Notes: generated by a model from the letters alone, not told the origin. DNA of 64,000 bases from Candidatus Micrarchaeota archaeon (GCA_016212505.1 JACRGB010000039.1:1590-65589); one strand, 5' to 3'; counted from the stretch's first letter, positions 4,342 to 25,525 are shown. Made by a program: numbers and translations.

Positions 4342-4908
4342 ATGTTTATGGAAATAACGATTCTCCGCCTTGGCCACCGCCTTCCTCGCGATGAGCGAAT
4401 CTCAACCCATGTAGCTTTAGTTGCACGGGCGTTTGGTGCAAGTTCATTTGTTTATTCTGGCCAAATTGATCATGGGCTAGAGGAAAGCATCGAGCGGATT
4501 TGTGAAAGTTGGGGCGGATCAGTAAATGGTTCCCTGTTTTCTGTTTGCTATGAAAAAAATCCGCTTTCGGTAATTAAAAAATTCAAAAAGAGCGGATTTG
4601 TAATTCTTCATTTGACTATGTACGGAGTTTCTATAACAAGCGCGCTCGAAAAAATAAAAATTAGCAAGGAAAAAGAAAAACTATTAATCATTGTCGGCTC
4701 GGAAAAAGTCCCTGGCGAAGTCTATCAATTAGCAGATTACAATATTAGCATAACCAACCAACCGCACAGCGAAGTTGCAGCTTTGGCAATCGCGCTCGAC
4801 CGCATCCAGGAAGGGAAAGAACTTAGCGAAAAAGGGTTTGATTTTAAGGGTAAAATAAAAATTGTGCCAACTGAAAAAGGGAAGAAGATTGTTGAAAATC
4901 AATCGTAA
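4342..4908 (+). CDS. trm56: tRNA (cytidine56-2'-O)-methyltransferase aTrm56 (SPOUT)
   Basis: The N-terminus ITILRLGHRLPRDERISTHVALVARAFGA matches the conserved aTrm56 motif. Size is about 185 aa. Confidence 0.8.
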   Translation: MFMEITILRLGHRLPRDERISTHVALVARAFGASSFVYSGQIDHGLEESIERICESWGGSVNGSLFSVCYEKNPLSVIKKFKKSGFVILHLTMYGVSITSALEKIKISKEKEKLLIIVGSEKVPGEVYQLADYNISITNQPHSEVAALAIALDRIQEGKELSEKGFDFKGKIKIVPTEKGKKIVENQS

Positions 4909-5162
4909 ATATTTTCCCTATGTCCTATTTCAAGTATAACTATTACTTTTTCATTTTCAAAAGTTTCATAAGTTACCCTATAATTCCCCATTCGCATTCT
5001 ATATCTGTGATAAGTTCCTTCAAGTTTTTTATATTTACGAACGAAAGGGCCTTCTTTCAATTGCGCTAAAGCTTTTAGTAATTTTTCTAAATCCGTTCTA
5101 AGTTTTAATTTCTTCAGAAACTTCTCAGCATTATTGGATAATCTTATTTCCCAATCACTCAT
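4899..5162 (-). CDS. relE: RelE/ParE-family type II toxin
   Basis: 87 aa. The C-terminal pattern YRMRMGNYRVTYE....VIVILEIGHRENIY is typical of RelE/ParE. It overlaps the upstream small ORF by 8 nt. Confidence 0.8.
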   Translation of the reverse strand: MSDWEIRLSNNAEKFLKKLKLRTDLEKLLKALAQLKEGPFVRKYKKLEGTYHRYRMRMGNYRVTYETFENEKVIVILEIGHRENIYD

Positions 5163-5379
5163 GAAGCTTCACTTCTAATTCCTGTGCGAGTTTATCCAAG
5201 GGCTTATAATTTTTCTTACTTCTTGCACTTATCCTGTTTAGGTTTTCAACTTCTTTTTTAGAAATAGCCTCAAAACCAATAAAATTCTCTATTTTTTGGT
5301 CTACCCTTTGAACTGTTTTTTCTATTTTTTTTAATTCTTCATATAGCATATTTAAAGTTACATTTTCCATAATCTTCAC
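5155..5379 (-). CDS. putative antitoxin of the RelE-type module
   Basis: 74-aa helical ORF directly upstream of the toxin and overlapping it. The call rests on position; no motif was recognised. Confidence 0.55.
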   Translation of the reverse strand: MKIMENVTLNMLYEELKKIEKTVQRVDQKIENFIGFEAISKKEVENLNRISARSKKNYKPLDKLAQELEVKLHE

Positions 5380-5513
5380 AACTAACTTATTTGTTTTTAG
5401 ACATTAAAAAGGTATGTTTTCATTAAACAAAACAGTTATAAACCGTCATAACCTGTGACATACTTTTATAATCTTATCCCGACACTATTTTTATCGAAAA
5501 TCATTGAGTCCTA

Positions 5514-8500
5514 GTGGATAAAATGGCTCTAATCAGAAGAAGGGATAAGGATGGGCAGGGGGCAGTAGGTGATCCCCTTTCTCACTCAACTCCCGTTCCA
5601 TCACCAAGATCTTCAAAATCAGCATTTTCAAGATGGTTTTCAAGTAGGGCTGTTGCGGCAGCAACTGCGATTGTACTTAGCATAACCAATATAAATGCAG
5701 GAATGCCTAATTTGGCATACGGTAAACCTCCTTCCGGAGGGAGTGCAGGAATTATGGCACCAGGTCCAACATTAGTTTCACAAACTGAAGCAGAACTACG
5801 GGCAAAAGCGCAAGAGGCAGTTTCTATTTTAGTTAGCTTTGTCTCTTCTGGTGGCAACGATTCACAGGGAAAATTTTACTCAAGATATTATGCGATATTC
5901 ACTGATCTTGTAACAAAATATAATATGGCAGATCCAATACAAAAAGTTGCATTTTATGATACTTTTAAACATGCATTTGAAAATAACTCTATTCTTTTTG
6001 ATTTTCAAAGCAGATACGCTGCAGATAAAGGACTTCTTGGAGCTGATCCGCTCCTTATCGGCACAATGCTTTTTGATTGTATCCGGATGATTGCACAAGG
6101 AAAAAGAGGGGACGCAGAAGCACAGTTTGGCCCTAATTTTGTTGCTAAAATCAACCAGATAATAGCGGTGCAGTCTTCACCAGTTCTGATTGATATACGT
6201 GCGAAAATGTCTTCTGGTCAACTAAGAGAAATAAACGAATTTTTCCAGAGAATGGGTCTTCCTGCATGTGCCCCTAAAGATAACGTCGCAATGATGCAAC
6301 TGGTGGATGCAACTACTTCGGCATTTGGTTTAACCGATCCAATTCAAGCAACCCAATTCCTAAATGCAGTTGTTTATGCTTATCTTTGGTTAAAAAGCGG
6401 GGAAAAACAAAGTTTTGAATACTGGGTCAGCCAATTAAAGGCCGATAGCAAAAAAGCACAGGAGCTTGCACAGAGGGCTCATTATGCATCAAAAGGTCCC
6501 GGCCAGCAATCATATGAAATTTTCTATTCGGAATATAAAAAATATTATGAAACCCCAGAAGCACAAATACCAAAAAAAGTTGATCAGTTTGAAGAATTAA
6601 AAAAACGCTATCCTCCTCATGTCCAAACTAGTGAGATGCATCTTGCCAAGCTGACAAAAATTTTTGAAACTTCACCTTCAGGTATGGTTTTGCAGGAAAT
6701 AGTAAATCGCTTCAATTTTGCCAGTGAAGCGGTTTTAGTTTTGGGGCAAGATCCATCAAGAAAGGCGGATCTTGCAAAATTTAAGGCAGAGCTTGATCCT
6801 CTTAGCAAATGGCTCGACAAATTTGACCTAAAAAAATTCATGGCAGAAGAGGCGCAGGCCCGAATGGAATTTCTTTCTGCACTTGGTATGGCAAAAATAG
6901 ACCCACGTATAGTATTTGAAGGGTATAAAACAAAACAGTTTGCAGCAATCGATGAATTAAATACACTTATTCAAAATAAGCGTTTTGCTGATGCAAGGGA
7001 AAAATTAACTGAAATTAAACAAGATCTCAATCCCCTTCGTGATATGCTGGCAAAAACCCCTGCAGCGCGCGAATGGGCAGATAAGATTGGCCAGCACCTT
7101 ACAGTTATAAAAACTTCCATTTCTTCTGCTTCGGTAACTAAAAAGGCAACAGATTCTCTATCAAGTTTAAGATCCAATTTCAATGAACTTTCTGCAAATG
7201 CGATAACAATTGTATTATTTGGTGAAAGTCAAAAACCAATATCAGAAAAACTTGCGGCATTTAAATCGTGCTTTATGAAAATCGATTCTGCTTATCTTCT
7301 TCTTGGAGATCCAAAACGATCGCAGATATTTTCATTATTCGGAGAATTAGAGGAAATAGCAGGCCAAAAACAACTTTACAACTTAGTCCTGGCTCATCTT
7401 TTTGCGCTTGATCAGGAAGTGGGCGAAATTTTCACCAACCTTGCAATTGCTGATCCTGATTTAATTGACAAGATGAAAAAACGCGTTGATAAGACTTTCT
7501 CTGCAGATCAAGTCCGAAAAGGCCAGGAAGCCTGGGCAAGAGATTATCATCAAATTGATGTAAGCCCGCTTCTTCTTGATAAAAACGTCCAGGATCTTCA
7601 TACGCGTGTTTCCAGTGCGGTCGCATCAGGAAAAGAATTCAAACCCGGTGATTTAACAACGGATGAAATCGTTATGCTGAAAAAAATGTATGGAGATTTA
7701 CCCCTTGAAGTCCAACTTAGACATTTCAACAATCATTTCAGGCCTCCATCAGAAGTTGACAATCAGCGATATGCAATTGCAGCCGCACTGCCTCCTATAA
7801 CTGCAGCCGCATTTTTCCAGTATGTAAAGACAGTTCAGGAAAATCATGTGGGTTCAGAATATGAGCGAAGGTCTGTTCGCGATACCATAATTTTCCTTAA
7901 TTCGGTAAATCCCATTCTTGTACCAAAATACCTTGCTGCAATAAAAGCAGTGGCAGAATCCTGTGCAAATGCCCCAGACACATATTCGCAGTCGCTCGAT
8001 ATGATACATGCTGGTACAAGAACGGTAGCAGGCCTTGCAGATCCCCTAAACCCAATAAACAGAGGCGCACTAATTGATGTTCGCAGAGTTATTGATGAAC
8101 TTGGTGATGCATTTAATTATATAAGAAGATCAGTTGCTTCAGGAAACCTAATCTATGACCGGCTTGACCTTTTGGATAGGACAATTTATCTTCTTCCGCA
8201 AGAGCCGCATTATATTCTTCATAAGCCATGGGCACTTAAGCCGCCTTTGATAGCCCCAGGTTATGGAGTTCCAGGCGGGTTTTATCCAAGCCCTTTCCCA
8301 AGACTGCTTACTCTTCCGGCACCAATTATTCCAGTAACTTCAGGAAGGGCTAACCTAAGTCCAGGCACAATCTATACTCCTGAAAGCGCAGCAATTGTTC
8401 CAACTACAATTATTCCTTCTTTATATATTAACACTTTTGCAGCTTCAACAGTTGCTAATGCAAGAAGTTGGTTTTATCCGACTCATACTCCAGTAACTAT

Positions 8501-11282
8501 CTCAACTGCTTTCCCAGGTTCAACCATCTGGTTCCCAAGTTTAACTAAATTCGGACTCATAATTCAGGATGCCTTCAGGCCAAAGAGGCCCCTGGAATAC
8601 AGTGCAAAGCCAATTGGCGGCGGCGGGCAATTTGGTTATGCCTGGGGCGATAATATTCCTACTATAGTAGGAGGAGTGGGAAGCTGGGTCACTACTACTG
8701 GTGGTGTTGCTGCTGCACTAAATGCAAGTTCAGAAACAGGTTTTGGAGGGTTAGGCATAGCCGGCCAGCCATTAGGAAGCAAAGGGGGAATAAGAAGTGC
8801 TTCCATAGGCGCTGAAGTAACCCCATCGCAGGCAAATGCGATTGCAAAAACTCTTTTCAGCCAATATGACCCAAAAAATCCAAAAAACATTGCATTCTCT
8901 GCTACTGCAGAAGCTGATCGCCTTCCAGGCGGAACAAAATCCACAGTTACTGGTGTATTTTCTTATACCGATCGTGATATTTATCTAAGGGTTTCCGGAG
9001 GCCATAGCGATTATTATGCTGATCTTAATTCTTTTGTATCTTTCCTCCTTACTGGAAAATATTCTACTGATGAAACTAAAGCAAAAGTTCCATTAACTGC
9101 TGCAGCAAATGTTGAAAATGTTTTGACAGAATCAGAAAAAAGCGGCGGTTCTGCACTGGCAGTAGATCTTGGAAGAACTTCTGTTCTATTGCATTTCCAG
9201 GAACTTTCATCACTTTATCTTTCTGGCTATGCAGCTGGTGGTGCCCAGGGCCAGGCTGCTATGGCGCCAACACAATATTTATGGACTGGTGCATTTGCCC
9301 CAACAGTAAGGGAGGTTGGCAAGACATCGGTTTATGAATTTAAATTCCCCGGGGAGTTGCTACGGTTTGATCGTGGCATGGGTACGGGCACTGGCGCAGG
9401 CCAGAGCGATGATTATTTCATACAGGATGGAGTGTTCACATTAATGCGCAGAAAAACCGATGGCGGAATAACAAGATTGTCCGAGTTTACCATTGGTGCC
9501 GGAGGCGGGTTCTACACCACACTTCCTCCTACTGTTCCTGGCATGCCTCCTCCTACTGAAAGTGTTACGCATGGTGCTGGACGCGGGGGGATACACTACA
9601 AACAAGAAACGATCTGGTCGGATAGGACACATACCAATTGGGGCCTTGGTGCTTCAGTGGAAGCAGGACCTGCAGATGCCCAGGCACTGCAATTTGCCCA
9701 GGCAGCATTCCAAAGAACTTATCTTCAAAACCTCTATAAGATCGGAGTTTATGGCTATGGGAGTAAGAGAGCAAACGAGCTTGTCTATGGTGCTTTGCTC
9801 AGCCTGATCCCACAATTCACTGTGGATCCCCAGAGTGGTGCGAGCTTCGATGCAATGAAATGGCTCTTTATTGGATTTATTGCAGGCGCAAGGGACATTT
9901 ATGGCGAAGATGTTTTCAAAAGAACCCAGGGCGCGCGAGTGGAAATTCAGCGCTACCAGGCAATTGATGTAATTGCAGATAATTTCAATGGTTTAATGTC
10001 TACTTATGGCAACAATCCCCAGCAGATACAGGCATTTATACAAAATTTCAAAAATTATTATGGCGTTATCGACCAGTTCTTTGACCGCTATGCTCTTGCT
10101 GTTAGTGTTTCGGAGAATTTTTCTCTTGATTTTAATATGGTTGCAAGGGAAGTTCCGGTTTCAGGAAAAGGCGGGGATTGGTATAAGCAGGTGCCTGATA
10201 ATGTGAGCGGAAGAGCACTTCTAACATTTAATCGTGGTTTTGCGCGTGCCCAGGCTTTCTTCCCACTTTTTCCGGCCAATCCTCAATTAGGTGGAATGGC
10301 TGGTGCGGTAGGTGCTGATCTTGGGCTTGATTTATTCAATGGGCCGGCATTTAACCGCATGATTGTTGGTGCTGCAGCTATTTTGTCACGCGATCAACTG
10401 GGCGAGCAGTGGAAATACAAAGCAACATTGCTTCAGGGCGGAATAGTTCTTTACAATAATCTGGTTGAAAATTATTCGAGCTACAAATCACTTGTGGCAA
10501 AATATGACCGTGCTGCGCAATATCTTGATAGCCCAAATAAGAAGATCCGGGGATACATAGGAAAAATTGATCCGGAATTAAGGGCCCAGCTTGCTTCTGG
10601 AGCAAATCCATTAATAAAATCCCAAAAAGTACGGGATCTTCTACTTGCTGCAGATGAAAGAACAATAAATCTTGATGAATCAACCTTGCGTGAAATTGGA
10701 GTTGCCTTAGGCCAACTATTTGAGCGGGAAAAATTCGCAATACAGGAAAAATTCAACAAAAGCGTTAAGGAAAATCTTGAAATTTATACTGCTGCCCGTG
10801 TCCTTATAGACGGGGATAAAATGTGGGATGTTGGAATATTTGCACAATATGTTGACCGGATGAAATTATACTTAATTGGAGGGATGCGCGATCAGCCCCA
10901 GTTCTTTGGCGGTTTTGATATCAAGCTGGTTAAGCGCGATAATATAGAATTTAATCTTGGTGCAATCCAGGGTGTAAGAGGAAAAGCAGGAGGCGGGCCA
11001 CCAGACGCTGGCTTTGGAGCTCATTTCCAGCTTAAGTTCCCACAAAGGACTGCTGGCGGCAGGCCAGGGGTTTCGGTTCACTTTGCAGGAGGATATTCAA
11101 CACAAGATAGTCCGACCTATTCAGATATTCTTATGCAAACTTACCAATATGGCGGCTTTGCAGGAGGCTGGGGCTTTATCACTTTATCTATAGGTGATGT
11201 TTATCGCGGTGCAACTCCAATGTTTATCAATCCAGGTCCTACTCCTTACAGCCCAACTCAGGCAAATCCCTACCAGAGATAG
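5514..11282 (+). CDS. giant orphan secreted/anchored protein (1922 aa)
   Basis: Uninterrupted 5.8 kb ORF (GTG 5514 or ATG 5523). Charged N-region followed by the hydrophobic segment AVAAATAIVLSI..AYG. The N-terminal half looks helical, a Pro-rich linker lies near 8221-8560, and the C-terminal half is Gly/aromatic-rich. Confidence 0.8.
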   Translation: MDKMALIRRRDKDGQGAVGDPLSHSTPVPSPRSSKSAFSRWFSSRAVAAATAIVLSITNINAGMPNLAYGKPPSGGSAGIMAPGPTLVSQTEAELRAKAQEAVSILVSFVSSGGNDSQGKFYSRYYAIFTDLVTKYNMADPIQKVAFYDTFKHAFENNSILFDFQSRYAADKGLLGADPLLIGTMLFDCIRMIAQGKRGDAEAQFGPNFVAKINQIIAVQSSPVLIDIRAKMSSGQLREINEFFQRMGLPACAPKDNVAMMQLVDATTSAFGLTDPIQATQFLNAVVYAYLWLKSGEKQSFEYWVSQLKADSKKAQELAQRAHYASKGPGQQSYEIFYSEYKKYYETPEAQIPKKVDQFEELKKRYPPHVQTSEMHLAKLTKIFETSPSGMVLQEIVNRFNFASEAVLVLGQDPSRKADLAKFKAELDPLSKWLDKFDLKKFMAEEAQARMEFLSALGMAKIDPRIVFEGYKTKQFAAIDELNTLIQNKRFADAREKLTEIKQDLNPLRDMLAKTPAAREWADKIGQHLTVIKTSISSASVTKKATDSLSSLRSNFNELSANAITIVLFGESQKPISEKLAAFKSCFMKIDSAYLLLGDPKRSQIFSLFGELEEIAGQKQLYNLVLAHLFALDQEVGEIFTNLAIADPDLIDKMKKRVDKTFSADQVRKGQEAWARDYHQIDVSPLLLDKNVQDLHTRVSSAVASGKEFKPGDLTTDEIVMLKKMYGDLPLEVQLRHFNNHFRPPSEVDNQRYAIAAALPPITAAAFFQYVKTVQENHVGSEYERRSVRDTIIFLNSVNPILVPKYLAAIKAVAESCANAPDTYSQSLDMIHAGTRTVAGLADPLNPINRGALIDVRRVIDELGDAFNYIRRSVASGNLIYDRLDLLDRTIYLLPQEPHYILHKPWALKPPLIAPGYGVPGGFYPSPFPRLLTLPAPIIPVTSGRANLSPGTIYTPESAAIVPTTIIPSLYINTFAASTVANARSWFYPTHTPVTISTAFPGSTIWFPSLTKFGLIIQDAFRPKRPLEYSAKPIGGGGQFGYAWGDNIPTIVGGVGSWVTTTGGVAAALNASSETGFGGLGIAGQPLGSKGGIRSASIGAEVTPSQANAIAKTLFSQYDPKNPKNIAFSATAEADRLPGGTKSTVTGVFSYTDRDIYLRVSGGHSDYYADLNSFVSFLLTGKYSTDETKAKVPLTAAANVENVLTESEKSGGSALAVDLGRTSVLLHFQELSSLYLSGYAAGGAQGQAAMAPTQYLWTGAFAPTVREVGKTSVYEFKFPGELLRFDRGMGTGTGAGQSDDYFIQDGVFTLMRRKTDGGITRLSEFTIGAGGGFYTTLPPTVPGMPPPTESVTHGAGRGGIHYKQETIWSDRTHTNWGLGASVEAGPADAQALQFAQAAFQRTYLQNLYKIGVYGYGSKRANELVYGALLSLIPQFTVDPQSGASFDAMKWLFIGFIAGARDIYGEDVFKRTQGARVEIQRYQAIDVIADNFNGLMSTYGNNPQQIQAFIQNFKNYYGVIDQFFDRYALAVSVSENFSLDFNMVAREVPVSGKGGDWYKQVPDNVSGRALLTFNRGFARAQAFFPLFPANPQLGGMAGAVGADLGLDLFNGPAFNRMIVGAAAILSRDQLGEQWKYKATLLQGGIVLYNNLVENYSSYKSLVAKYDRAAQYLDSPNKKIRGYIGKIDPELRAQLASGANPLIKSQKVRDLLLAADERTINLDESTLREIGVALGQLFEREKFAIQEKFNKSVKENLEIYTAARVLIDGDKMWDVGIFAQYVDRMKLYLIGGMRDQPQFFGGFDIKLVKRDNIEFNLGAIQGVRGKAGGGPPDAGFGAHFQLKFPQRTAGGRPGVSVHFAGGYSTQDSPTYSDILMQTYQYGGFAGGWGFITLSIGDVYRGATPMFINPGPTPYSPTQANPYQR

Positions 11283-11335
11283 CATGGAGTAAGGTTTTAT
11301 AATCCATTTGTGAATGTACTTCAGAGGTCGATAGT

Positions 11336-11740
11336 ATGAGATTAGATTTTATTGATTTTAATTTTTCTGAAACCAGAAAAGTTGGGCCAAATCTTCATCA
11401 AGGAGTTGCAACTAATATTGATGTCAATAATGTAAAAATGGAAGAAAATATGCTTTCAATGGATTTTGTCTTTACTGCAATTTATTCACCGAGCAATAGC
11501 AACATAACAATTGGCGGCAGCGTAAAATTTAGCGGTGATGAAATAAAGGCTGCATATTCAGATTATACAAAAAACAAGAAATTTTCCCCTACCTATGGCG
11601 AGGAAATAGTCAATGCAATAAATTATCATGCTTCTATGAACGCGATATTAATCGGAAGGGCAGTTAATCTTCCTCCTCCAGTAATATTACCAACAATAAA
11701 GTTCCAAAACAACCAAGTTCCTGCAAAAAGCAAAAAATAA
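11336..11740 (+). CDS. small hypothetical protein, possible SecB-like chaperone fold
   Basis: 134 aa with its own TATA (ggttttataatcc) and a GAGG before the ATG. The layout and the C-terminal ...AVNLPPPVILPTIKF resemble the SecB ...[11 protein letters not shown] region. This is a weak by-eye similarity only. Confidence 0.5.
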   Translation: MRLDFIDFNFSETRKVGPNLHQGVATNIDVNNVKMEENMLSMDFVFTAIYSPSNSNITIGGSVKFSGDEIKAAYSDYTKNKKFSPTYGEEIVNAINYHASMNAILIGRAVNLPPPVILPTIKFQNNQVPAKSKK

Positions 11741-11770: not shown

Positions 11771-13012
11771 TTAGCGCCTTAAAGGCGCAGCCTTTTCCTT
11801 ATTTTTCTCAACAAAATTTGTCCATTCGATTATCAATGCAGATGAATCACGCATTCCTTCTGGAATATTTATTCCCTGGGTTTTTAGAAATGTACTGACA
11901 ACTCCTATTGCCAGTTTTCTTTTTTGTTCATCCATCGGAGCGCTGATCATCATAAGAATAGACCCAGTTCCCTGAGTAACTTTTCCGAACAGATCATTCT
12001 TTACAATTGAACTGAAATATAGTTTTTCAAAAGCACTATCCACAACTTTTTTCTCTGCCTTATCTAATAATGCTTCGACTTCTTTTGCTTTTCCAGCATT
12101 TACGTTTTGGATAATCAATTCTTCTGTAACTTTTGGTTGAGCAACCGCCGGAGCAGCTGCTGGCGCCACTACTCTTGCTGGAGGAGCGGCACTGTCAGTT
12201 TCTTGTCGCGGAGCAGCCGCCTCAACTTTCGGTTCCCATCTCTTTATCCTTTGGTCTTCCTTCCCTTCTGCGTTAAATCGCCTTGCATAAAGTGCAGTCC
12301 CGATCACTGCCCTGCTAATTTCGCCAAAAGACCTAATCGCGTACAGTTCATCCCCAAATGCAGATGATCCATTTTGTGCAAAATATTCATTTAGCCCCTT
12401 GACCAGTGCATCCAAATTTTCTGTACTTACTTTACTTCCTTTTGCTGCTCCCCCCAGAAATAATGCTAGTCGCATATATGCGCCGCTGGTTTGTCCATCA
12501 ACGTATTGTTTGAACTTGTTTCCCTTCTCCGATGATACAAATTCTATGAGTGCTTGGGCGGTTTCATTTTTAGGCATTTTTTCAATATCATCTGCCCGCT
12601 GATAAAGAGCATCGATTTCTCCCTTTTCTATTCTTTTGGTGAGCCATTTTAGGTCTATTTTTTCTAATTTGGCCACTTTTACCCAGGCAAGTTCGCCTTC
12701 CCTTCTTGCAGGAGTTGCATGTATTGTTTCAGAAGGTTCTTTTTCCCCTCCTTCGATTCCGAGTTTTGCTTTGATCAGAAGAATGGCGCGATTTATTTCA
12801 GCATCCTCCCGTTTGAGTTTGCGTATTTCGGCTTTTGATTTCTCATCCCCTCCATCACCAGCGTCCCGGTATGCACTATTTAATGCTTTTATTATTTTTT
12901 CTCTTATTGCTGAATCATCATCTGTTGCATTTACTTTAATTTTAGTTGGAAAATTCTGCGCTGTACAGTTTACCGTAAGGACTCCACTTTTGTCTGCAAC
13001 TATTCCTGTCAT
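11771..13012 (-). CDS. hypothetical protein (413 aa) translationally coupled to the 2700-aa gene
   Basis: Its ATG overlaps the stop of the upstream giant gene (ATGA at 13009-13012). It has the Pro/Ala linker AAPPARVVAPAAAPAVAQP. No recognised domain. Confidence 0.7.
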   Translation of the reverse strand: MTGIVADKSGVLTVNCTAQNFPTKIKVNATDDDSAIREKIIKALNSAYRDAGDGGDEKSKAEIRKLKREDAEINRAILLIKAKLGIEGGEKEPSETIHATPARREGELAWVKVAKLEKIDLKWLTKRIEKGEIDALYQRADDIEKMPKNETAQALIEFVSSEKGNKFKQYVDGQTSGAYMRLALFLGGAAKGSKVSTENLDALVKGLNEYFAQNGSSAFGDELYAIRSFGEISRAVIGTALYARRFNAEGKEDQRIKRWEPKVEAAAPRQETDSAAPPARVVAPAAAPAVAQPKVTEELIIQNVNAGKAKEVEALLDKAEKKVVDSAFEKLYFSSIVKNDLFGKVTQGTGSILMMISAPMDEQKRKLAIGVVSTFLKTQGINIPEGMRDSSALIIEWTNFVEKNKEKAAPLRR

Positions 13013-16000
13013 TTTTTCACCGCGTCTCGTCTTAAATTGTCACCCTTTGTTTTTAGTGCTGACTCGCTCGGTTCAAGGCCATCAATTTTTGCATCTTCTC
13101 CGTGGCCTTCTTTTATATGAATGCCATACCTATCATAAAGCTCTTTCGGGTCCGGATGTTTCAGCACTATTTCGAAGTATATGAGTTTCCTTGCGGTTTT
13201 TCTCTGCTCTCCTTCATCTGCACCAAGGCTATTTTTAAAAGGGGCTTTGGCAAGCAAATTTTCTATACGGAGTCTAACTTTAGAAGATATGTTCTTTTTA
13301 AAAAACGCATCCGCTTCAACCTGTTTCTGCTCCTCGCTTTTGCCGAATGTCGGGGCTGGCGTTGGCGCTTGGGCGGGCGCTGCGCCTTGTGCTGAAGTGC
13401 CTGTTGGCAAGGGCGCAGTAAGAAGCGCTTTTACATGTGCTACCCGGTCGGTTTTCTCCTCCGGAATAGTAAGCTCCAGTTCCAATCCTCCGCCTTCAGT
13501 TGCTTTAACCCTTATTCCAATATCTTTGAGCACTTGCGGGGTATTGTCCTGCTCGCCCTTTTGCGCAGTTTTTGGCACATGGTATTGTCCTGCTCCGCGT
13601 GCTGCGGCTGCATGCCTATATATTGTATCATATATCTGTTGTTCTACTATCCCCGGCGCGATGCTTCCCGCTTTCTCCTTCAGCACCTCTCTTAGCTTAG
13701 TATCTGTTCCGATTGCCTTTAGCAGCCATCCATTTTCTGAAAGTCCGCTATTAAAGTATTCCCTTATGCGCGGGGTTATTGCCGCCCCCTTACTGACTTC
13801 ATAAAGCCCTAAAGAGTCACCTGCCCTTGAAATGGCAAGGCCACCCGGCAATATGTATGTCGGGTTTAATGGGGCCAGCCGGAGCTGCACTGCTTGCGGG
13901 GCGCTTGGTTTTGGTGCTTTAACTTTGAGCTGCTCAATGGAATCAAATATGCGCTTTACCTCTTTTTCAACATTTCCTCTTCCCCAGGTTTCTGTGCCGC
14001 TCCCAAGCAGTTTTAGCAATGCCAAAACCAGTTTTCCAGGGGCATCAAACTTGTCTTTTTCCGCAATTATCGCCTTAACCAGCCCTTGCCCGAACCTTGG
14101 ATCATTTGCCAAAGCCACAAGTTCCGGATGATCAAGCATTTTCGGATCAAGCTCTGCAAGTAAGCTTGGTCCCACCAATCCTTTGGCCTTTGCCTTTTCC
14201 ATTGCTTTGGCAGAATCACTTCCTATTATCTCCGAAGCAAGGTCTCTTGGATTGCCATATACCATTTGTGCATTATTTGGGTCAGCCCCAAGGGCAAAGC
14301 CATCAAGCCCGTTAAGTTTTGCCCAGTTCGCAACTTTTAATTTATAATTTTCCATGAGCCTTGCCGTGTCTGCTTCTGAAACCTTATACTCATCAACAAG
14401 CGCTTTGAACGCGGCCCTAAATTCAGGGTGCTGCGTTGCCCGATTATCCATAGCTGCAAGGAATGAATATGTGTTTGTTGAAGCAAGAGGATTTTCAAGA
14501 TAAAGGCCCGCAACTTCCAGCTGTTTTCTGATTCCATCCGCTGTTTCTGCTGGAGTTGATTTTCTTAGGTTTGCAACAGCATCAGCCATATATGACTGAG
14601 GTATATGGCCTCCAAGCACTCCTTCAGCATATAATATCCTGAATAGCTGTGGGTGGGTGCGTAAGAACTTTATATCTTCTTCCTGCTGCGATCCTACTAC
14701 CGGAACCTTGCCTTGCATTTGCACTATCCCTGTGGAAATACAGAATTTCAGCACCATGCCGTCGTATCCCCTCAAAAGGGCTTGCCTTGCAACCATCTGG
14801 TTGCTGAATGCTGAGAAGTACTTGAGGTCTTCTAAGTCAAATTTCGAATCTGGATTCAGCTTCCGTTTCTGGTTAATGTATTCTGTTAAGGCAGCAGTCA
14901 TAGGATACCCTTTCACCTGCCCATTCATGAGCGGATCTTGCAAATACCCTCTGTAAAATTTTTGTGCAAGCGTTCCACGGACAGTCTGGACATCCAAAGT
15001 TGGTATCTCTCCCTGCGCTCTTATCACTGCCAGTAATGACCCTCTGTCAAATGTCCTGCCGCTTACATCAGCATAATTCAAACCGAATATGCCTAATGTT
15101 TCCTTTACATATCCTTCTGCTTCTGGTTTTGGTAAATTAGCGTACCTGTTTAGTTTTTCCAAATCAATATACGCAATCTGCTGCTCAAGGATAGCACCCA
15201 AATAAGGGAAATCCTTCTGGAGTTTTGCAAATGCATCATCTGATCTTTTTACTGCATCATGAAGTTCTTTTGCCAGTTTTTCAATTTTTGATCCTGATTC
15301 CGGATGTCCGGCCTCTTTCCCTTTTTCTTTCCTCTCTGTTTCTTCCCTGGCTGCTGCTAAAGCTCCTCTTTTTTCTGTTTCTGCCTTTCTGGCTGCATTT
15401 AATTCTTCGATATCATCTTTTACTTCTACAAACCGGACTTCCCTTAGCATAACTGCCTCTGCTTTTCGGTGTGCCGTAGCAAGCAGGACATCATCTTTTG
15501 TTATACTTGCGGCTGTTAGGTCTTTTGTGAAACCAGCCTCAACTTCAGCTTTTTTCTCAGCTTTTACGGCCGGTCCTTGCAACTCCGCAAACTTATCGTT
15601 TATTCCCAATATTTTTCCCGCACCTGTTGCTGCTAAAAATGCCGGCCGCGGATCTATTACATAAATATTTGTATCTCCTATCTGCAAATCAAGCTTACCT
15701 TTATCACTTGGCTGCAACGTCTCCCTTTTGAGAGGTTCTGTAGGCAACATCCAAACATATTTTTCACCTTCTCCCCTATTTGGAAGAGGAATCCGGTAAC
15801 TTCCGAACCTATCGCTAATGCCCCCTTTTTCTTCAAGACCCCATGCTTCTGCCATTTTTTCTTTCCTTTCATACTCTGGGTCCAACCCAAAATGATAAGC
15901 TGGCCAAGCCAAACTCATTGCTGCTGGCAGGAAATATGCATAGGGCCATCCTCCTCCCCTGAAAAATGCCCTTCCCCTGCTCGGGCTTGCTTTAAAGCCC

Positions 16001-19000
16001 CTCCATCCAGCATACCCAATAGCCGCAGGTACTCCTACTGCTGCAATTCCTCCGAGCCCTATGGTGTATAAACCAACACCTAGGGTCGCTACTCCAGCGG
16101 CACCTAGTCCTACTTTTGTTACCCTTTTCCAGGTTAGTTTTCTTGTATAACCCGGCGCAGTTGGGCCAGTGCCACTCGGGCCTTCTGTTGCAGACTTAAG
16201 ATGGCTTGCAGCATTAAATTCTACTGAAAATTGTGCATTTATTTTTATCTGGTTGGACAGCCTTCTTGTATAATCTACAAATCCATTTGCTTCCCCTACC
16301 ACTTCGGACGGGTTCGGGCCGCTGGCTTTTCCGGCCTCATTGATTTTGTTTCCAATCCGCTCGATCTTGGATGGATCTACTACTTGGCCTTTGCCATCAG
16401 CACCAGCTGCTTTATCTCCTGCCGCCAAGCGCAAAGCTTCGCTATGGACCTCATCGAGCAATCTCCCGATGTCCCTTATTGCTCCGCCCCTTTCGCTGTC
16501 TATGAATGAACGTGTTCCCCCTTCGATCACGTTAGTTATTGCTGTTTTATATCTGGCCTTTGCATCTGCAGTTACATCTACCCCATCAACCAGGGCATTT
16601 AATCTTGCTCCAATTATTGCATTTGCTGCCCGATTCGGTTCTCCAAGTGCTTTTGCACAATCTGCTGCTACTGTTCCTTCTCCAACCAATGCCTTAAGTG
16701 CAGTTCTTGCAGGTTTGCCATCTTCGCCAACTTTTACCTTTCCTTCTATGTCTTTTCCTAAGGCTTCACTGCCAAGATACTCGCTAACCGCCCCATTAAA
16801 GCCTCCAGCGCCAATATTTCCGCTGTCTGCTTTTTGCCTAAGGTCGGCAAATAAGTTATCCGGCCTTTGGCCAGTTTCTACCGCCCGTGAGTTATTCAGC
16901 CTGGCTATCTCTCTGGAGTAATGGTCGATAATCGCCCTTCTTTCATTTCCAACCGTCTCACCCGCCTCACCAACGGCCGGAGCGCCCCTTAGTACGGCGG
17001 CATCATTAGGATCCATTCGCGGGAGCATTTGGGCAAGGAGTTCAGGGTTCCGTTCCATTAATGCTTTCACTTGTTCTTCAGTTAGGGGTTTTGCCTGGTA
17101 TTCCTGAGTAACTTCCCTAGGGTTAACTCCTCTTGCGCGGGCTTCATCTTTAATTGTTTTTTCTGCTAATTCCTTGGCTTGAGCAGGAAGGTCTACCCCG
17201 ATCTCTCCTGATTTTGCATAAAGCGCTGCAAGGGTCTCTCCCTCTGCCCTTGTGCTCATGCTTCTCCTTAAATTGCCTACAGCATCATCGTATCTTTGTG
17301 CGATTTCCGCTGGTTTTAGCGCGCCTGCCTTGCCTAACTGCCCATCTACTGCTGCCCTCTCTTCAACCGTAATTGTTTTGAATACGTCTCCGACAAGAGA
17401 CGGCCTGGCTTCTAACAATGCCTTAACCTGGCCTTCGCTTAATGTTTTTGCCCTATACTCATCCTCAATTGCCTTTGCTTCGACTGCCCTGCCTGCACGC
17501 GCTGATCTTTGCTTTGCCGCAGCATTTATTATGTCCCGTGCTTCTCTTGCAGCGTCTAATCCGAAGCCAGCTTTACTTTTTGCATAAAGTGTTGCAAGTA
17601 TTTCCCTGTAGCTGGATGGATCTTTCTCCTGAGGGTCAGTTGCCCTTCTTGCCAATTCTTGCGTTAATTTTTCAAACTCTTGTGGGTTAGCCCTGCGCAT
17701 CTCTTCAAGCGAAGCTACGCATTCTCCCTTATGTTCTTTGAGGAATTTATCTGCAATTTCTTTTGTGGGATCTATTGTTTGTTCTCTTGCTCTGGCTGCC
17801 GCTATTTCAGCTTCTGTTTTTCCAGCTTCAGCAGGCTCTGCGCCTTTAGGTCCCTTACCTTCAGGAATCGAAGCTACTTGTTTTACTTCTGGAGGTGCGG
17901 CGGTACTGTCTTTCATGAACCATCCGCCAACGGTTTTCAATGTCCCTCCAACTGCTCTACCCACTCGTCCTGCCCGTGTTCCTTGCGCTCCAACTTGTTC
18001 TGGGGGTACTTCGCCAGTTCTTGTCGGAATTATCTGGCCCCTAAGGTCTGTAAATTGTCCTTCTGGTGTAGTTCCGCCACCCGCTGCTGCCCGTGCAGCT
18101 TGTTCTGCAGGCTCGTCCACAATTCGTACTTTGCCTCGCAAATCCTTAAGATCATTTTCAAATCTTCTTCCTAAGAAACTATTAGCATCCAATCCTTGTT
18201 CTGAACCTAATGCATCCATTAGTTGTTTATTGTTTGCCCAGATTTCCATTCTTCTTCGCATTTCCGGAACCATTTCTTCCAGACGCCCTTGCGCGGCTTT
18301 TTGTGCATCCGCTCCTTTTCTTCCTGATAATGCGCTAAGATAATCCTGCAAAGTAGCTGTATCATTAAGGATTGCGCCTTTTGTTGGTGCCTCATATGCC
18401 CTTACTTCGGGTTTAACAATTCCAAGGTTCGCCATCTGCTCTTCAAGCAAGCTTGCCCTTACTGCCCGCATTCTCCAGTATCTTGAAATGCGGTTTGCAA
18501 TTGAATGCGCTACGCCCACTCCCGCCATCCCATACTGCAGATATGCCTCCCTTCTAAGTGAATCTGCCTCGTTGATTAATTCCCTCCTCCTCACTTCATC
18601 CACCTCTCCTTCTGCTTTAGCATAAAGTTCATTTGAATTTGCCTGTAGTTCGAGTGCATCCCCAGTCATTTTTAAGGTATATAACCATCCCATTCCTTTT
18701 GCAATTTGCTCTGCTGATACTGTCACATTTTCTGCTGCTTTTAAGGCCTTAAGTGCACCTGCTGTTGCACCTGCCCCAACTAGTGCAGCTGTTATAGCAA
18801 CATTGGCCCACGTTTCATTGCTTACTTTTCCAGTGGCCTCATATTCAGTTACCACATCATCGGTAGTTGTTCCTATTATCAATGCGCCAGATATCCAGGG
18901 GCCAACTACTGGGATGAAACCGCTTCCTATAGTTGCAGCTATTAAAGCCACTTTGCCTGCGAACTTTGCCTTTTCTGCCTCTTTTTCCATCTGCTGGAGT

Positions 19001-21111
19001 ATTTTTGTTGCTTCATTAAGCGTATCTATGCTCGTTTCTTTTCCTCCACTTTCTGCTGCAAGCGTACCTATTTCTGCCCCCTCTATTTTGAATTTTGGAC
19101 CTCCGCCTGATCCCCCACCCCCTTTTGGTGAAAATGGGCCGAAAGTACCTGCGCCTCCCACCCCTGCAAGTACAAGCCAGACTACTGCCTTTTCATGCTC
19201 TGCCATCCCTCCAAGAGGAGTTATTGAATGGGCAGGAGTTGCAAATATTGCAGTTTCAATTAATTTCGTGCCTTTAAATCTTCTTTGAAGGTCTTCCCCA
19301 TCTATAATCCCAAAAAGGATATTGTGCATTGCATCAGTGTGAATTCTTTCATATGCTTCAAGGTCTGGTTTGAAATTATAAAGATATCTTACCCAATCCT
19401 CAGCTTTCATATCAATGCCCAAAGTGGCACTGAGCATCCTGCCTTGCTCTAGAAGCGTTGTTTTTTCCACTGCGCCGCTTTCAAAATTCGGTGCACCATA
19501 TATTTGTAGTGCCTGCCTTCTTGCCTTTATTGCCAAAGAATATAATTTTTCGGCCTCCTCAAATTTACCTGCCCGCAAAAATCCTACTGCAGCATCTAAT
19601 CTGGATTTGCTATCTGCAAGATAATCAAGGGCCTTATAGCTCTGGCCTGCAAAATGTTCTTTATTTAATGCCCGATAATACGCTTCATGCCGGGTCAATT
19701 CCCCATCCATTATCTGGAGCCCTACTGTTTTTCTTTTGAGTTCTACGCTTTGCCGGATAAGTTCCCTATATTCATCATACGGGATTTTTTCATCCGGTTT
19801 AAGCCCTGCTATTTTTGCACTAAACTGGTGAACCTGTTTGAATAAATGTTCCCATTCTGAGCGTAGCATCGGATCCAATTTTTTAAAGTCTGGCGTATCC
19901 TCATAACGTGTGATTTCCCCAAAGCGGTCAACTGAAATTGGGTACGGAAAAGGCAGGGTATCCCCGACAATTTCGAAAGGCGCTGCCAACTGCTTTTTCC
20001 CTTTCCATCCGCTTAAGAGAATGCTGCTCATTTGCCCTAATCCATTATCAATGCCTTTTTTTATGGCTTCAATATCCTGCGCTCTTGCGGCATCGGCAAC
20101 TAAATTACCCCTTAATATGATCCGCTTTCTCTCTTCACTATATCCCCTTAAATCCCCTTTTATTGCAGCAAGATGGGCGTTACGAAGGAGCTCTTTAAGC
20201 GTAGTCCCCCCCTTTAATCGGGAATCGGTCTTATGGATTTTTTCTTCATATCCTGAGGCACCTTCATAAATTTTTTTCATGTTATAGTAATCCGTAAGCG
20301 CATTGCATATGTCTATATTTCTTGAAACGCCCTTATCGAAAGTCTCTTCCTTTGCAGCCCATTTTTCTGCAAGTTTTTCTTCTTTCCTTTCGCCCTCTTT
20401 GCCTTGAGGAATTTCCCAGTTTTCCGAAGCATAATCTGCAAGCATTTCCTCCATTACAGAACCTTTGAACCCTAAGCTTACCGAATCGATTTTATTCCCT
20501 TTCCTGACTCCGAATTCCTCGATACTTGCAACATAGGTGATTGCAAAACCCATCCCATGATCTGCATAGACAAATTCCCCTTTCCTGGCAAGTTCTTCTG
20601 CTGTGCGGAGAACTTTTTCGGCAAGGGCTTTCTGCCTGGTAAGGCCTTTTCCCCAGTTTGAAAGGGATGCGCGCAGGCCAGCAGCCTGCTCGCTGTATTC
20701 CGAATAAGCTACTTCCTTCGAAAATTGAGCCAGCATTTCCGGGGTTAGCGGAGTTCTGTTTTCTACAATTGTCTGGAATCTGGACTGGAATTTTTTCTTC
20801 TCATCCTCGTTCAATAGCGGCAGGAGCATTCCTACGCTGATCGCAAACCCAGCAACATCCAGCCGCCCTTCCTTTATCGCAGATAGCGCCTGCTCGCCGA
20901 ACCATTTTGTTTTTGGGTTTTTTACCTGCACTTTTGCAGCCTTAGACAAAAGCTCGGTATACCCTGTAATTTTTGCCCGGACTTCCGGAGCCTGGGCAAC
21001 TGCTTCTGCGCCCCTGGCCAAGTCAGCTATCTCTGCAAGCACTTTTTTCATGTCCTGCTCATAAGGATTTTCCCTAACTCTTTGTGGACTTTGTGGAGAA
21101 CCGCTCATCAT
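13009..21111 (-). CDS. giant orphan membrane-associated protein (2700 aa)
   Basis: Uninterrupted 8.1 kb ORF with no N-terminal signal. It has two internal clusters of hydrophobic helices (coding about 18745-19200 and 15890-16125), an internal 122-aa tandem repeat and long charged helical stretches. Confidence 0.85.
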   Translation of the reverse strand: MMSGSPQSPQRVRENPYEQDMKKVLAEIADLARGAEAVAQAPEVRAKITGYTELLSKAAKVQVKNPKTKWFGEQALSAIKEGRLDVAGFAISVGMLLPLLNEDEKKKFQSRFQTIVENRTPLTPEMLAQFSKEVAYSEYSEQAAGLRASLSNWGKGLTRQKALAEKVLRTAEELARKGEFVYADHGMGFAITYVASIEEFGVRKGNKIDSVSLGFKGSVMEEMLADYASENWEIPQGKEGERKEEKLAEKWAAKEETFDKGVSRNIDICNALTDYYNMKKIYEGASGYEEKIHKTDSRLKGGTTLKELLRNAHLAAIKGDLRGYSEERKRIILRGNLVADAARAQDIEAIKKGIDNGLGQMSSILLSGWKGKKQLAAPFEIVGDTLPFPYPISVDRFGEITRYEDTPDFKKLDPMLRSEWEHLFKQVHQFSAKIAGLKPDEKIPYDEYRELIRQSVELKRKTVGLQIMDGELTRHEAYYRALNKEHFAGQSYKALDYLADSKSRLDAAVGFLRAGKFEEAEKLYSLAIKARRQALQIYGAPNFESGAVEKTTLLEQGRMLSATLGIDMKAEDWVRYLYNFKPDLEAYERIHTDAMHNILFGIIDGEDLQRRFKGTKLIETAIFATPAHSITPLGGMAEHEKAVVWLVLAGVGGAGTFGPFSPKGGGGSGGGPKFKIEGAEIGTLAAESGGKETSIDTLNEATKILQQMEKEAEKAKFAGKVALIAATIGSGFIPVVGPWISGALIIGTTTDDVVTEYEATGKVSNETWANVAITAALVGAGATAGALKALKAAENVTVSAEQIAKGMGWLYTLKMTGDALELQANSNELYAKAEGEVDEVRRRELINEADSLRREAYLQYGMAGVGVAHSIANRISRYWRMRAVRASLLEEQMANLGIVKPEVRAYEAPTKGAILNDTATLQDYLSALSGRKGADAQKAAQGRLEEMVPEMRRRMEIWANNKQLMDALGSEQGLDANSFLGRRFENDLKDLRGKVRIVDEPAEQAARAAAGGGTTPEGQFTDLRGQIIPTRTGEVPPEQVGAQGTRAGRVGRAVGGTLKTVGGWFMKDSTAAPPEVKQVASIPEGKGPKGAEPAEAGKTEAEIAAARAREQTIDPTKEIADKFLKEHKGECVASLEEMRRANPQEFEKLTQELARRATDPQEKDPSSYREILATLYAKSKAGFGLDAAREARDIINAAAKQRSARAGRAVEAKAIEDEYRAKTLSEGQVKALLEARPSLVGDVFKTITVEERAAVDGQLGKAGALKPAEIAQRYDDAVGNLRRSMSTRAEGETLAALYAKSGEIGVDLPAQAKELAEKTIKDEARARGVNPREVTQEYQAKPLTEEQVKALMERNPELLAQMLPRMDPNDAAVLRGAPAVGEAGETVGNERRAIIDHYSREIARLNNSRAVETGQRPDNLFADLRQKADSGNIGAGGFNGAVSEYLGSEALGKDIEGKVKVGEDGKPARTALKALVGEGTVAADCAKALGEPNRAANAIIGARLNALVDGVDVTADAKARYKTAITNVIEGGTRSFIDSERGGAIRDIGRLLDEVHSEALRLAAGDKAAGADGKGQVVDPSKIERIGNKINEAGKASGPNPSEVVGEANGFVDYTRRLSNQIKINAQFSVEFNAASHLKSATEGPSGTGPTAPGYTRKLTWKRVTKVGLGAAGVATLGVGLYTIGLGGIAAVGVPAAIGYAGWRGFKASPSRGRAFFRGGGWPYAYFLPAAMSLAWPAYHFGLDPEYERKEKMAEAWGLEEKGGISDRFGSYRIPLPNRGEGEKYVWMLPTEPLKRETLQPSDKGKLDLQIGDTNIYVIDPRPAFLAATGAGKILGINDKFAELQGPAVKAEKKAEVEAGFTKDLTAASITKDDVLLATAHRKAEAVMLREVRFVEVKDDIEELNAARKAETEKRGALAAAREETERKEKGKEAGHPESGSKIEKLAKELHDAVKRSDDAFAKLQKDFPYLGAILEQQIAYIDLEKLNRYANLPKPEAEGYVKETLGIFGLNYADVSGRTFDRGSLLAVIRAQGEIPTLDVQTVRGTLAQKFYRGYLQDPLMNGQVKGYPMTAALTEYINQKRKLNPDSKFDLEDLKYFSAFSNQMVARQALLRGYDGMVLKFCISTGIVQMQGKVPVVGSQQEEDIKFLRTHPQLFRILYAEGVLGGHIPQSYMADAVANLRKSTPAETADGIRKQLEVAGLYLENPLASTNTYSFLAAMDNRATQHPEFRAAFKALVDEYKVSEADTARLMENYKLKVANWAKLNGLDGFALGADPNNAQMVYGNPRDLASEIIGSDSAKAMEKAKAKGLVGPSLLAELDPKMLDHPELVALANDPRFGQGLVKAIIAEKDKFDAPGKLVLALLKLLGSGTETWGRGNVEKEVKRIFDSIEQLKVKAPKPSAPQAVQLRLAPLNPTYILPGGLAISRAGDSLGLYEVSKGAAITPRIREYFNSGLSENGWLLKAIGTDTKLREVLKEKAGSIAPGIVEQQIYDTIYRHAAAARGAGQYHVPKTAQKGEQDNTPQVLKDIGIRVKATEGGGLELELTIPEEKTDRVAHVKALLTAPLPTGTSAQGAAPAQAPTPAPTFGKSEEQKQVEADAFFKKNISSKVRLRIENLLAKAPFKNSLGADEGEQRKTARKLIYFEIVLKHPDPKELYDRYGIHIKEGHGEDAKIDGLEPSESALKTKGDNLRRDAVKK
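16990..17600 (-). repeat. in-frame tandem duplication (2 x about 122 aa) inside the 2700-aa gene
   Basis: Copy 1 reads ATLYAKSKAGFGLD...EYRAKTLSEGQVKALLEARPSL and copy 2 reads AALYAKSGEIGVDL...EYQAKPLTEEQVKALMERNPEL. The shared DNA string ttgcataaag recurs 366 nt apart (17215 and 17581). Confidence 0.65.
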
Positions 21112-21155
21112 TTCACCAATTTTTATCAGTAACTTTCACACTCATCATTAACTCT

Positions 21156-21479: not shown

Positions 21480-21594
21480 TTATCTATGATTCTGCGACTT
21501 TTATAAACGCTTAGCCTGTCAAAACAACTGTGCTGTACTTGACTATAATTAGCACGATTATGTTATTAAAGTCTTGTTTCATGGCCCTTTGTGG

Positions 21595-22589: not shown

Positions 22590-22724
22590 ACCATATATGG
22601 TACGTTCATACTCTATATAAAATGATCGTTTTATTAATAATATGATAATTTTTATTGTATTGGAATTTGCAAATTCCAATGCGGACAAATTTTTGCGAAA
22701 ATTTGTCCTTGAGTAATGAAAAGC

Positions 22725-24119: not shown

Positions 24120-24152
24120 GATCCCGCCTTCAAACTAGCTTTTTCCGGGGCT

Positions 24153-24599: not shown

Positions 24600-24600
24600 T

Positions 24601-25514: not shown

Positions 25515-25525
25515 TATTTTTTCTC

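Follow-up and report, generated by a model that had tools for sequence, protein, structure and literature searches.

The stretch of DNA described here, a 64,000-nucleotide (nt) segment of the genome of a Candidatus Micrarchaeota archaeon (GCA_016212505.1, JACRGB010000039.1:1590-65589; hereafter, the window), encodes a giant protein of 1922 amino acids (aa) and, directly behind it, a small protein of 134 aa. The balance of probability is about even for reading the giant as a Sec-exported envelope protein with a barrel like those of bacterial outer-membrane proteins (OMPs), and the small protein as its dedicated cytoplasmic holdase of the SecB fold. The giant appears to be a lineage-specific envelope protein of Micrarchaeota (DPANN), and its gene lies in a conserved chromosomal locus of envelope type. 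It is assigned here to family A, as distinct from the sister families B and C introduced below. The giant gene, its parts, and the partner gene are arranged as follows:

5514..11282, plus strand: family-A giant gene, a single uninterrupted open reading frame (ORF) of 1922 codons in the ORF list
5514..5720, plus strand: predicted N-terminal export signal region (residues 1-69), read from the sequence, with FSRWF in a basic n-region, a short h-region AVAAATAIVLSI, and a c-region TNINAGMPNLAYG
5721..8219, plus strand: helical half (residues 70-902), Gly-poor and rich in charged residues, from composition, periodicity, tblastn, and BLASTP/hhalign
8220..8609, plus strand: Pro/aromatic-rich segment (residues 903-1032), from composition, the AlphaFold2 model, and the family alignment
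8610..11192, plus strand: beta module (residues 1033-1893), predicted by AlphaFold2 to be a hairpin meander of about 38 strands, mostly of 8-19 residues
9678..9728, plus strand: helical insertion 1 (residues 1389-1405), from DSSP of the model
9960..10061, plus strand: helical insertion 2 (residues 1483-1516), from DSSP of the model
10461..10769, plus strand: helical insertion 3, of about 100 residues (1650-1752), from DSSP of the model
11193..11279, plus strand: Pro-rich C-terminal tail (residues 1894-1922) after the last strand GGWGFITLSI, with no terminal aromatic residue and a predicted local distance difference test score (pLDDT) below 50
11336..11740, plus strand: partner gene of 134 codons, 54 nt 3' of the giant's stop codon, coding for a predicted SecB-fold, cytoplasmic protein with no signal peptide

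An alternative gene call for the giant starts at the ATG at 5523 and yields 1919 aa. Part of this architecture had been proposed in a preliminary description of the window, which placed a beta-rich module behind a Pro-rich stalk in the C-terminal half of the protein, and the eight peptides quoted there are all found (residues 909-944, 965-971, 1036-1047, 1145-1163, 1810-1821, 1833-1843, 1853-1864, and 1879-1894). The sharp change of sequence character that it located near residue 903 is confirmed: the composition of residues 1-902 differs from that of residues 903-1922 (chi-square p = 1.3e-6), owing to a rise in Gly from 4.9% to 12.1% (p = 4e-8) and a drop in charged residues from 23.7% to 17.0% (p = 3e-4). 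Its start for the Pro-rich segment, nt 8221, misses the reading frame by one base, as the codon of residue 903 begins at nt 8220. The C-terminal half had also been described as rich in Gly, aromatic residues, Thr, and Ala, which stands for Gly, but not for the others: the rises in Phe/Trp/Tyr (from 9.2% to 12.0%, p = 0.06) and in Ser/Thr are non-significant, and Ala even falls slightly, from 10.9% in residues 1-902 to 10.0% in the C half. This half lacks Cys and has an isoelectric point of 9.0.

The N-terminal half appears to be mostly helical, as had been suggested, with a 100-degree amphipathic periodicity (z = 3.7) and a depletion of period-2 signal. Its last ~300 residues are conserved within family A, according to tblastn comparisons with ten related loci (L001-L010; the related loci are numbered L001 to L018), and an N-terminal helical module of the giant is common to families A, B, and C (BLASTP, hhalign). 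The segment that follows is indeed Pro-rich (Pro 17% in residues 901-1000), but it does not behave as a low-complexity stalk, being conserved in the family alignment (top-residue frequency 0.50, occupancy 0.85). In the predicted structure, residues 903-1032 have low pLDDT and form two short helices.

AlphaFold2 was applied to the C half (residues 903-1922) with an alignment of 29 sequences, resulting in a model with a mean pLDDT of 71.6 and a predicted template modelling score (pTM) of 0.66. Residues 1033-1893 are modelled with 53% strand and 16% helix, the hairpin turns often comprising 2-5 residues, and the first ~12 predicted strands are short and Gly-rich. The beta-rich character claimed for this half is thus borne out as a predicted beta meander, but not as a uniform one, given the 16% helix and the three helical insertions. 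A Foldseek search of the model against the PDB produced 43 matches at E <= 1e-3, with probabilities up to 1.0, led by SprA, MtrB, SusC, OprC, and other TonB-dependent receptors, Deinococcus SlpA, AlgE, and LptD. The closest solved structures are, therefore, bacterial outer-membrane barrels, and the resemblance to such barrels that had been noticed in the sequence is recovered in the predicted structure at the level of fold class. On this basis, the model supports a C half folded as an up-and-down meander of very large size, of the type seen in outer-membrane barrels, again as a fold class. Among the entries of the BFVD viral fold library, only those resembling porins, SusC, or autotransporters were matched with any probability, and there were otherwise no meaningful relatives.

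Other folds fare worse. No aerolysin-type toxin, Rhs/Tc cocoon, beta-solenoid, immunoglobulin (Ig)-like array, or archaeal S-layer protein appears among the top 50 PDB fold matches. The autotransporter-type and aerolysin-like readings offered in the preliminary description both have to be given up, since neither kind of protein is matched in Pfam or in those top 50 PDB folds, and, in the case of autotransporters, the N-terminal half is helical instead of being a beta-helix passenger. The model is neither disordered nor helical, and the giant matches no S-layer or sheath family of archaea (Pfam, NCBIfam, and Foldseek), so the outcomes that had been named beforehand as speaking against a beta architecture are absent.

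At the sequence level, searches with the giant against Pfam, NCBIfam, PHROGs, PADLOC, and the PDB sequences gave zero matches, as did those with the family-A profile against Pfam and the PDB sequences; a word-index homology search with the full giant matched only the giant itself, the family profile adding one protein, and no significant internal repeats were found by self-comparison. An exhaustive HMMER search with residues 903-1922 against 1.84 billion representative sequences, nevertheless, identified 28 relatives with 27-33% identity, of 1222-2223 aa plus fragments. In almost every one of them, the matched module occupies the C-terminus and follows a long N-terminal part, and the two-module layout is therefore conserved, as the preliminary description had anticipated. 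When one genome per GTDB species was scanned, nine family-A loci were found, all from Candidatus Micrarchaeota, Micrarchaeia, or Bilamarchaeaceae. The giant and its relatives are called "hypothetical protein" wherever the sources name them, no mention of these proteins was found in the Micrarchaeota genome literature searched, and the literature searches returned no earlier description of archaeal or DPANN beta-barrels.

The family alignment also shows which parts of the predicted beta module are conserved. Conservation is highest in the strands, whereas the insertions seen in relatives, up to 108 aa long, are mostly located in loops. Inside the predicted strands, the family alignment exhibits a face asymmetry, in which one face is hydrophobic and charge-poor (z = 3.2, p = 0.002, within-strand permutation). 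At least four alternating charge-poor hydrophobic positions are present in 21 of the 37 strands and at least five in 13 of them, the cleanest being the last ~15 strands. In addition, the motif [E/D/N/Q]-x-G-x-x-hydrophobic-x-hydrophobic opens the last strand in 19 of the 28 relatives, and this motif resembles the OMP beta-signal consensus.

The N-terminus of the giant is predicted to carry a Sec signal peptide, as judged from its sequence. The h-region comprises 12 residues and is followed by a c-region of small residues, both having been read directly from the sequence, and no 19-residue stretch attains the hydrophobicity of a transmembrane helix. Similar signal-like N-termini ending in AMA|E/Q are present in many family-A relatives, and also in families B and C; cleavage of the signal peptide in the giant would presumably follow. 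The signal itself is unusual. A conserved form of it, consisting of F/S-S/R-R-W/F-F, a short hydrophobic core, N-I/F-N, and then AMA|E/Q, is common to the three giant families and to a 734-aa secreted helical protein (L001 3934-6138), and it could represent a sorting signal peculiar to this lineage or a degenerate version of a Tat-like motif.

No part of the genetic context is more informative than the partner gene, which was overlooked in the preliminary description and is reported here for the first time. A homologue of the partner (33-48% identity) directly follows the giant gene in 10 of the 10 loci L001-L010, and also in L018, and the partner family comprises 46 clusters. AlphaFold2 models the 134-aa protein with a pLDDT of 90.2 as four antiparallel strands (residues 2-14, 23-36, 39-51, and 55-66) followed by two helices (70-80 and 85-109), and 11 of its 12 best PDB neighbours in Foldseek are SecB or SecB-like chaperones. 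Its top matches, Rv1957 from Mycobacterium tuberculosis, SecB from Haemophilus influenzae, and SecB from Escherichia coli, have template modelling (TM) scores of 0.54-0.58, probabilities up to 1.0, and E-values from ~2e-3 to 1e-2. The partner is accordingly predicted to have the SecB fold. The classical clients of SecB in bacteria are unfolded precursors of outer-membrane proteins, and we propose that the partner is a dedicated export chaperone for the giant, to which it would bind as chaperone to client. Two identical octamers precede the two genes:

5464..5471, plus strand: TATA-box-like TTTTATAA, upstream of the giant gene, with a putative promoter role
11295..11302, plus strand: identical octamer TTTTATAA, 34 nt upstream of the partner ATG, with a putative promoter role

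These octamers may be separate archaeal TATA-box promoters for the giant and partner genes.

The association between giants and SecB-like proteins extends beyond family A. Paralogues of the partner were found in L011 and L013-L018, each adjoining a giant ORF of 1568-2935 aa with no Pfam match. The giants are distributed into three families:

Family A: the window protein, those of L001-L010, and a 1635-aa protein of L018; ending in a Pro-rich tail after the last strand
Family B: L011 (2824 aa), L015 (2170 aa), L017 (2248 aa), and L018 (2935 aa); endings WWFGLYGRIEW, WFMISVGIHF, and WFMISGGIRW, with L018 ending in ...WWFMLHAGFRWGP
Family C: L013 (1568 aa), L014 (1825 aa), and L016 (1637 aa); endings NFKIGAEF, NFGISAGF, and NFKATTEF

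The C-termini of families B and C consist of alternating-hydrophobic strands with a terminal F or W in all but one case (L018), and in their sequence they look like the classical C-terminal insertion signals of bacterial OMPs. Terminal strands of this type would be unexpected in archaea. An hhalign comparison of families A and B aligned 1065 columns (probability 97.7%, E = 1.4e-12), among them the first two-thirds of the beta module. The type of partner paralogue tracks the giant family, as is expected for cognate chaperone-client pairs. With the SecB-fold partner conserved and the sister families ending in OMP-type termini, the proposed reading of the window protein gains weight.

The clearest hint of one chaperone per client comes from L018, where tandem SecB-fold paralogues lie between two different giants, in the order aTrm56, A-giant, small-1, small-2, and a convergent B-giant (L018 4625-19446); small-1 is 38% identical to the window partner and small-2 is 26% identical to it. 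Regarding the wider locus, SecD/SecF genes are adjacent in L001, L015, and L017, and aTrm56 adjoins the giant/SecB-like genes in L006, L007, L009, L011, L013, L014, L016, and L018.

Taken as a mechanism, the proposed reading would involve the following steps. The giant would be synthesized with its N-terminal Sec-type signal, and the unfolded precursor would be held in the cytoplasm by the 134-aa SecB-fold holdase until its export through SecYEG, after which the signal peptide would be cleaved. The C-terminal ~890 residues would then fold outside the cytoplasmic membrane into a single-chain barrel of ~38 strands with three helical insertions and variable loops. This barrel, presumably closed and perhaps embedded in lipid, would be seated in the outer layer of the envelope as a pore or as an anchoring unit. 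By analogy with Deinococcus SlpA, the ~830-residue helical half and the Pro-rich segment may be situated between the layers.

Several observations weigh against this reading. The multiple sequence alignment (MSA) behind the model is shallow (29 sequences), and the five AlphaFold2 models span pLDDT values of 59.7-71.6. The Foldseek TM-scores of the beta module against outer-membrane barrels are just 0.11-0.22, and therefore the fold class is supported, but a specific superposition is not. The alternating hydrophobic pattern that had been described is marginal in the single sequence, in which the period-2 hydrophobic moment reaches z = 1.4-1.9 over shuffles (z = 4.0 for an OmpA control), and it becomes significant only when the predicted strands are compared across the family. 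The count of a strict lipid-face dyad motif, 12, is level with the 11.5 expected from shuffles (OmpA control, z = 2.9). In 16 of the 37 strands there is no charge-free face of membrane length, and many central strands hold charges on both faces. The window protein also lacks the E-x-G motif of its relatives, having GGWGFITL in its place, and it ends in GGWGFITLSIG plus a 29-residue Pro-rich tail whose last residue is R instead of an aromatic one, so that a C-terminal beta-signal with a terminal aromatic is absent. By sequence, it falls into no curated outer-membrane beta-barrel (OMBB) family, there being no Pfam, NCBIfam, or PDB-sequence match for the protein or the family profile, and its membership of the OMBB superfamily is not established.

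The same applies to the export side of the proposal. The SecB likeness of the partner is one of fold: PF02556, like any other Pfam family, is absent from all 46 members, and an hhalign comparison of the partner profile with E. coli SecB gave E = 0.62. Archaea are not known to have SecA, the usual partner of SecB, or an Omp85/BamA-type insertase. No Omp85 or POTRA domains were found among the called neighbours in the 64-kb window plus the 20-kb flanks of the related loci, to which this search was confined. Finally, the layer in which the barrel would reside is itself in dispute, as a cryo-electron tomography (cryo-ET) study of the cultivated archaeon ARM-1 now takes its "outer membrane" to be an S-layer (PMC11329633).

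It is this reinterpretation that raises the main rival explanation, in which a monoderm cell is covered by a proteinaceous lattice or canopy of S-layer type whose building block is the beta module, the helical half serves as a spacer towards the cytoplasmic membrane, and the barrel-like sheet forms the lattice pores or the contacts between proteins. We consider this explanation unlikely, albeit deserving of attention. The outer layer of ARM-1 is a sixfold lattice with a spacing of 18.5 nm and elongated densities reaching toward the membrane (PMC11329633), which would suit such a subunit, as would the weak dyad signal of the single sequence, the charges on both faces of many strands, and the presence of Deinococcus SlpA, an S-layer-forming barrel, among the PDB matches with the best TM-scores. 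However, the features by which an archaeal S-layer or sheath protein could be recognised were not found: there is no match to an archaeal S-layer family in Pfam or NCBIfam, no S-layer structure from archaea in the top 50 PDB matches, no PGF-CTERM, no hydrophobic C-terminus or other C-terminal anchor, and no Ig-like array, and the N-glycosylation sequons (8 in 1922 aa) are not enriched over chance. Moreover, the C-terminal third of the protein has clean, charge-free hydrophobic faces, and ARM-1 belongs to a different lineage, in which no homologue has been demonstrated.

The preliminary description saw a fit with a role in host contact. Spelled out, a stalk-presented barrel would insert into the host membrane as a pore for metabolite uptake. 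An episymbiotic life is common among DPANN archaea, the module is similar to pore-forming barrels, and variable loops with large insertions fit exposed surfaces. We nonetheless find this role unsupported and improbable, as neither Pfam nor the top 50 PDB folds reveal any similarity to aerolysin, haemolysin, or other beta-pore-forming toxins, and such toxins assemble oligomeric barrels from soluble monomers, not single chains of ~38 strands. Furthermore, the gene is located in a conserved chromosomal locus beside the housekeeping gene aTrm56, and homologues also occur in genomes of Anstonellales (Bilamarchaeum/Bilamarchaeaceae, L006 and L010), an order to which a rich metabolism and a lower dependence on hosts have been ascribed (PMC12892359).

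Only slightly less can be said for the barrel being a modelling artefact, with the C half corresponding instead to a beta/Gly-rich adhesin or to several smaller beta domains, and the OMP neighbours reflecting generic long antiparallel hairpins. The shallow MSA, the moderate pLDDT, the TM-scores of at most 0.22, the dyad motif that is no more frequent than in shuffles, and the short, Gly-rich first ~12 strands would all be compatible with an artefact. Against it, a pTM of 0.66 over 1020 residues, of which ~170 are disordered, would argue for one coherent arrangement; the predicted strand positions match the conserved blocks, with indels mostly in loops; the sister families end in classical OMP-type terminal strands; and beta-solenoids, Rhs/Tc cocoons, and Ig-arrays are missing from the top PDB matches. 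We regard an artefact as quite improbable.

A final explanation, under which the 134-aa protein serves a toxin-antitoxin-chaperone (TAC) system as its chaperone and is unrelated to the giant, agrees with its best structural match (the TAC chaperone Rv1957) and with a ParE-like toxin cassette in the window (4899-5379), but is contradicted by synteny and hardly credible, given that this cassette lies 6 kb away, on the other strand and on the far side of the giant gene, that the small gene adjoins a giant ORF in the other 17 loci with no adjacent toxin-antitoxin pair, and that the paralogue type tracks the giant family.

Several known systems can be compared with the envelope protein and chaperone proposed here. 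In SlpA from Deinococcus radiodurans (8agd, 8ae1, 7zgx) and in OmpM, a non-barrel N-terminus is followed by an elongated helical part and a giant C-terminal barrel (30 strands in SlpA), and the SlpA entries have the highest query-normalised TM-scores of the PDB search (0.21-0.22), which are far below fold identity. However, the window protein lacks the SLH domain and is not similar to these proteins in sequence, its helical part of ~830 residues is not an obvious coiled coil, and, unlike the SlpA host, it belongs to an archaeal organism with no peptidoglycan. Among the elements of an SlpA/OmpM-type tether (SLH domain, coiled-coil stalk, and barrel), just the order of a helical part followed by a barrel is held in common. 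SprA, the 36-strand translocon of the type IX secretion system (T9SS; 8gl8, 8gl6), provides the best Foldseek E-value (1.9e-5) and is also a single chain with a comparable strand count and inserted domains. Nevertheless, its query-normalised TM-score is 0.17, the two sequences are not similar, and T9SS genes are absent, so that its function is not transferable.

TonB-dependent transporters, SusC, MtrB, and LptD (22-26 strands) share the same meander hairpins (Foldseek probability 0.9-1.0), and in TonB-dependent transporters and SusC a plug precedes the barrel, just as the conserved residues 903-1032 precede the module here. The window protein, in contrast to TonB-dependent transporters, has no plug domain, TonB box, Pfam match, or terminal aromatic, and its predicted strands are more numerous. 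Autotransporters are likewise secreted and likewise place a beta-barrel module at the C-terminus, after a large N-terminal part, but their barrels of 12-16 strands and beta-helix passengers differ from the ~860-residue module of ~38 strands and the helical N-terminal part found here, and PF03797 is not matched. As for the partner, it shares with SecB and the SecB-like TAC chaperones (1qyn, 1fx3, 5mtw) the topology, a similar size, a cytoplasmic location (predicted for the partner), and a genetic link to secretory clients of beta-barrel type; it differs from SecB in its C-terminal tail, which is basic rather than acidic, in the lack of a sequence-level relation, and in belonging to archaea, which have no SecA. 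An archaeal "SecB homologue", MJ0357, has been mentioned in the literature (PMC4361572).

The pairing of a giant with a SecB look-alike suggests that these archaea may follow a bacteria-like route in constructing part of their envelope. The possession of transmembrane beta-barrels and of SecB is considered a hallmark of diderm bacteria and their organelle descendants, Ihomp1 from Ignicoccus, the one characterised archaeal outer-membrane pore, is helical, and no archaeal outer-membrane beta-barrel is known; the verdict that an OMP-like module is unexpected in an archaeal genome is upheld. A more far-reaching proposal, which we regard as speculative and rather doubtful, is that Micrarchaeota have a true lipid-containing second layer with at least three fast-diverging families of giant barrels, each with a cognate SecB-fold chaperone. 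If this were true, a bacterial-style logic of OMP biogenesis would exist in Archaea, either independently invented or derived from a very old transfer. The barrels might then form the pores of the hexagonal outer layer, or they might correspond to the large barrel-shaped docking complex that cryo-ET has revealed in a cultivated relative.

Inner and outer membranes have been reported for ARMAN and for the cultivated ARM-1 (PMC4243693; PMC8784108; PMC8871954), and the cryo-ET study of ARM-1 describes a 21-nm barrel-shaped complex in the envelope (PMC11329633). Whether the outer layer of ARMAN/Micrarchaeota is an outer membrane (PMC4243693, PMC8784108) or an S-layer (PMC11329633) is disputed, and the locus described here supplies concrete molecular candidates for this question. 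It also offers a handle on the post-translational export of very large beta-rich proteins in SecA-less archaea.

The remainder of the window corresponds to an archaeal chromosome, with genes for aTrm56, eIF-6, fibrillarin, RFC, FtsY, aminoacyl-tRNA synthetases, and tRNA-Glu. The neighbours of the giant and partner genes are:

4342..4908, plus strand: aTrm56 tRNA methyltransferase (Pfam PF01994, E = 2e-42), a syntenic marker with no functional link
11771..13012, minus strand: 413-aa protein between the partner and 2700-aa genes, with a weak local match to a 333-aa protein of L014 (E = 1e-3)
13009..21111, minus strand: 2700-aa protein with several predicted transmembrane helices, long charged helical regions, and no Pfam match

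The 2700-aa protein could belong to the envelope locus as an inner-membrane partner, and its residues 2108-2370 match the second giant of L013, L014, and L016 (E = 5e-17 to 4e-7). A consistent association of this neighbour with family-A genes was ruled out, no relatives being present within 10 kb of these genes in L001-L010, and its link to the locus as a partner is therefore weak. From its relative position and the weak match to L014, the 413-aa gene may correspond to the gene of 319-342 aa in family-C loci.

On the other side of the giant, between its gene and aTrm56, the ParE-like cassette mentioned above (4899-5379, minus strand) consists of an 87-aa toxin (PF05016, E = 3e-11) and an overlapping upstream ORF of 74 aa, which is probably the antitoxin; the cassette looks like a toxin-antitoxin insertion. 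Further upstream, a 564-aa Ser/Thr protein kinase (1096-2790; Pkinase, E = 6e-47) precedes a 343-aa protein (3262-4293) with an N-terminal membrane anchor and no family match. Downstream of the 2700-aa gene, overlapping genes for a HEPN domain protein (150 aa) and a nucleotidyltransferase (219 aa) form a HEPN/MNT-type pair (21595-22688, minus strand). A sustained negative GC skew and AT skew (to -0.2 and -0.3) extends from 12000 to 30000 and coincides with a long run of minus-strand genes that includes the 2700-aa gene. Lastly, the tRNA-Glu (UUC) at 30479-30555 lies inside the listed ORF 30475-31242, and therefore at least the start of this ORF is probably non-coding.

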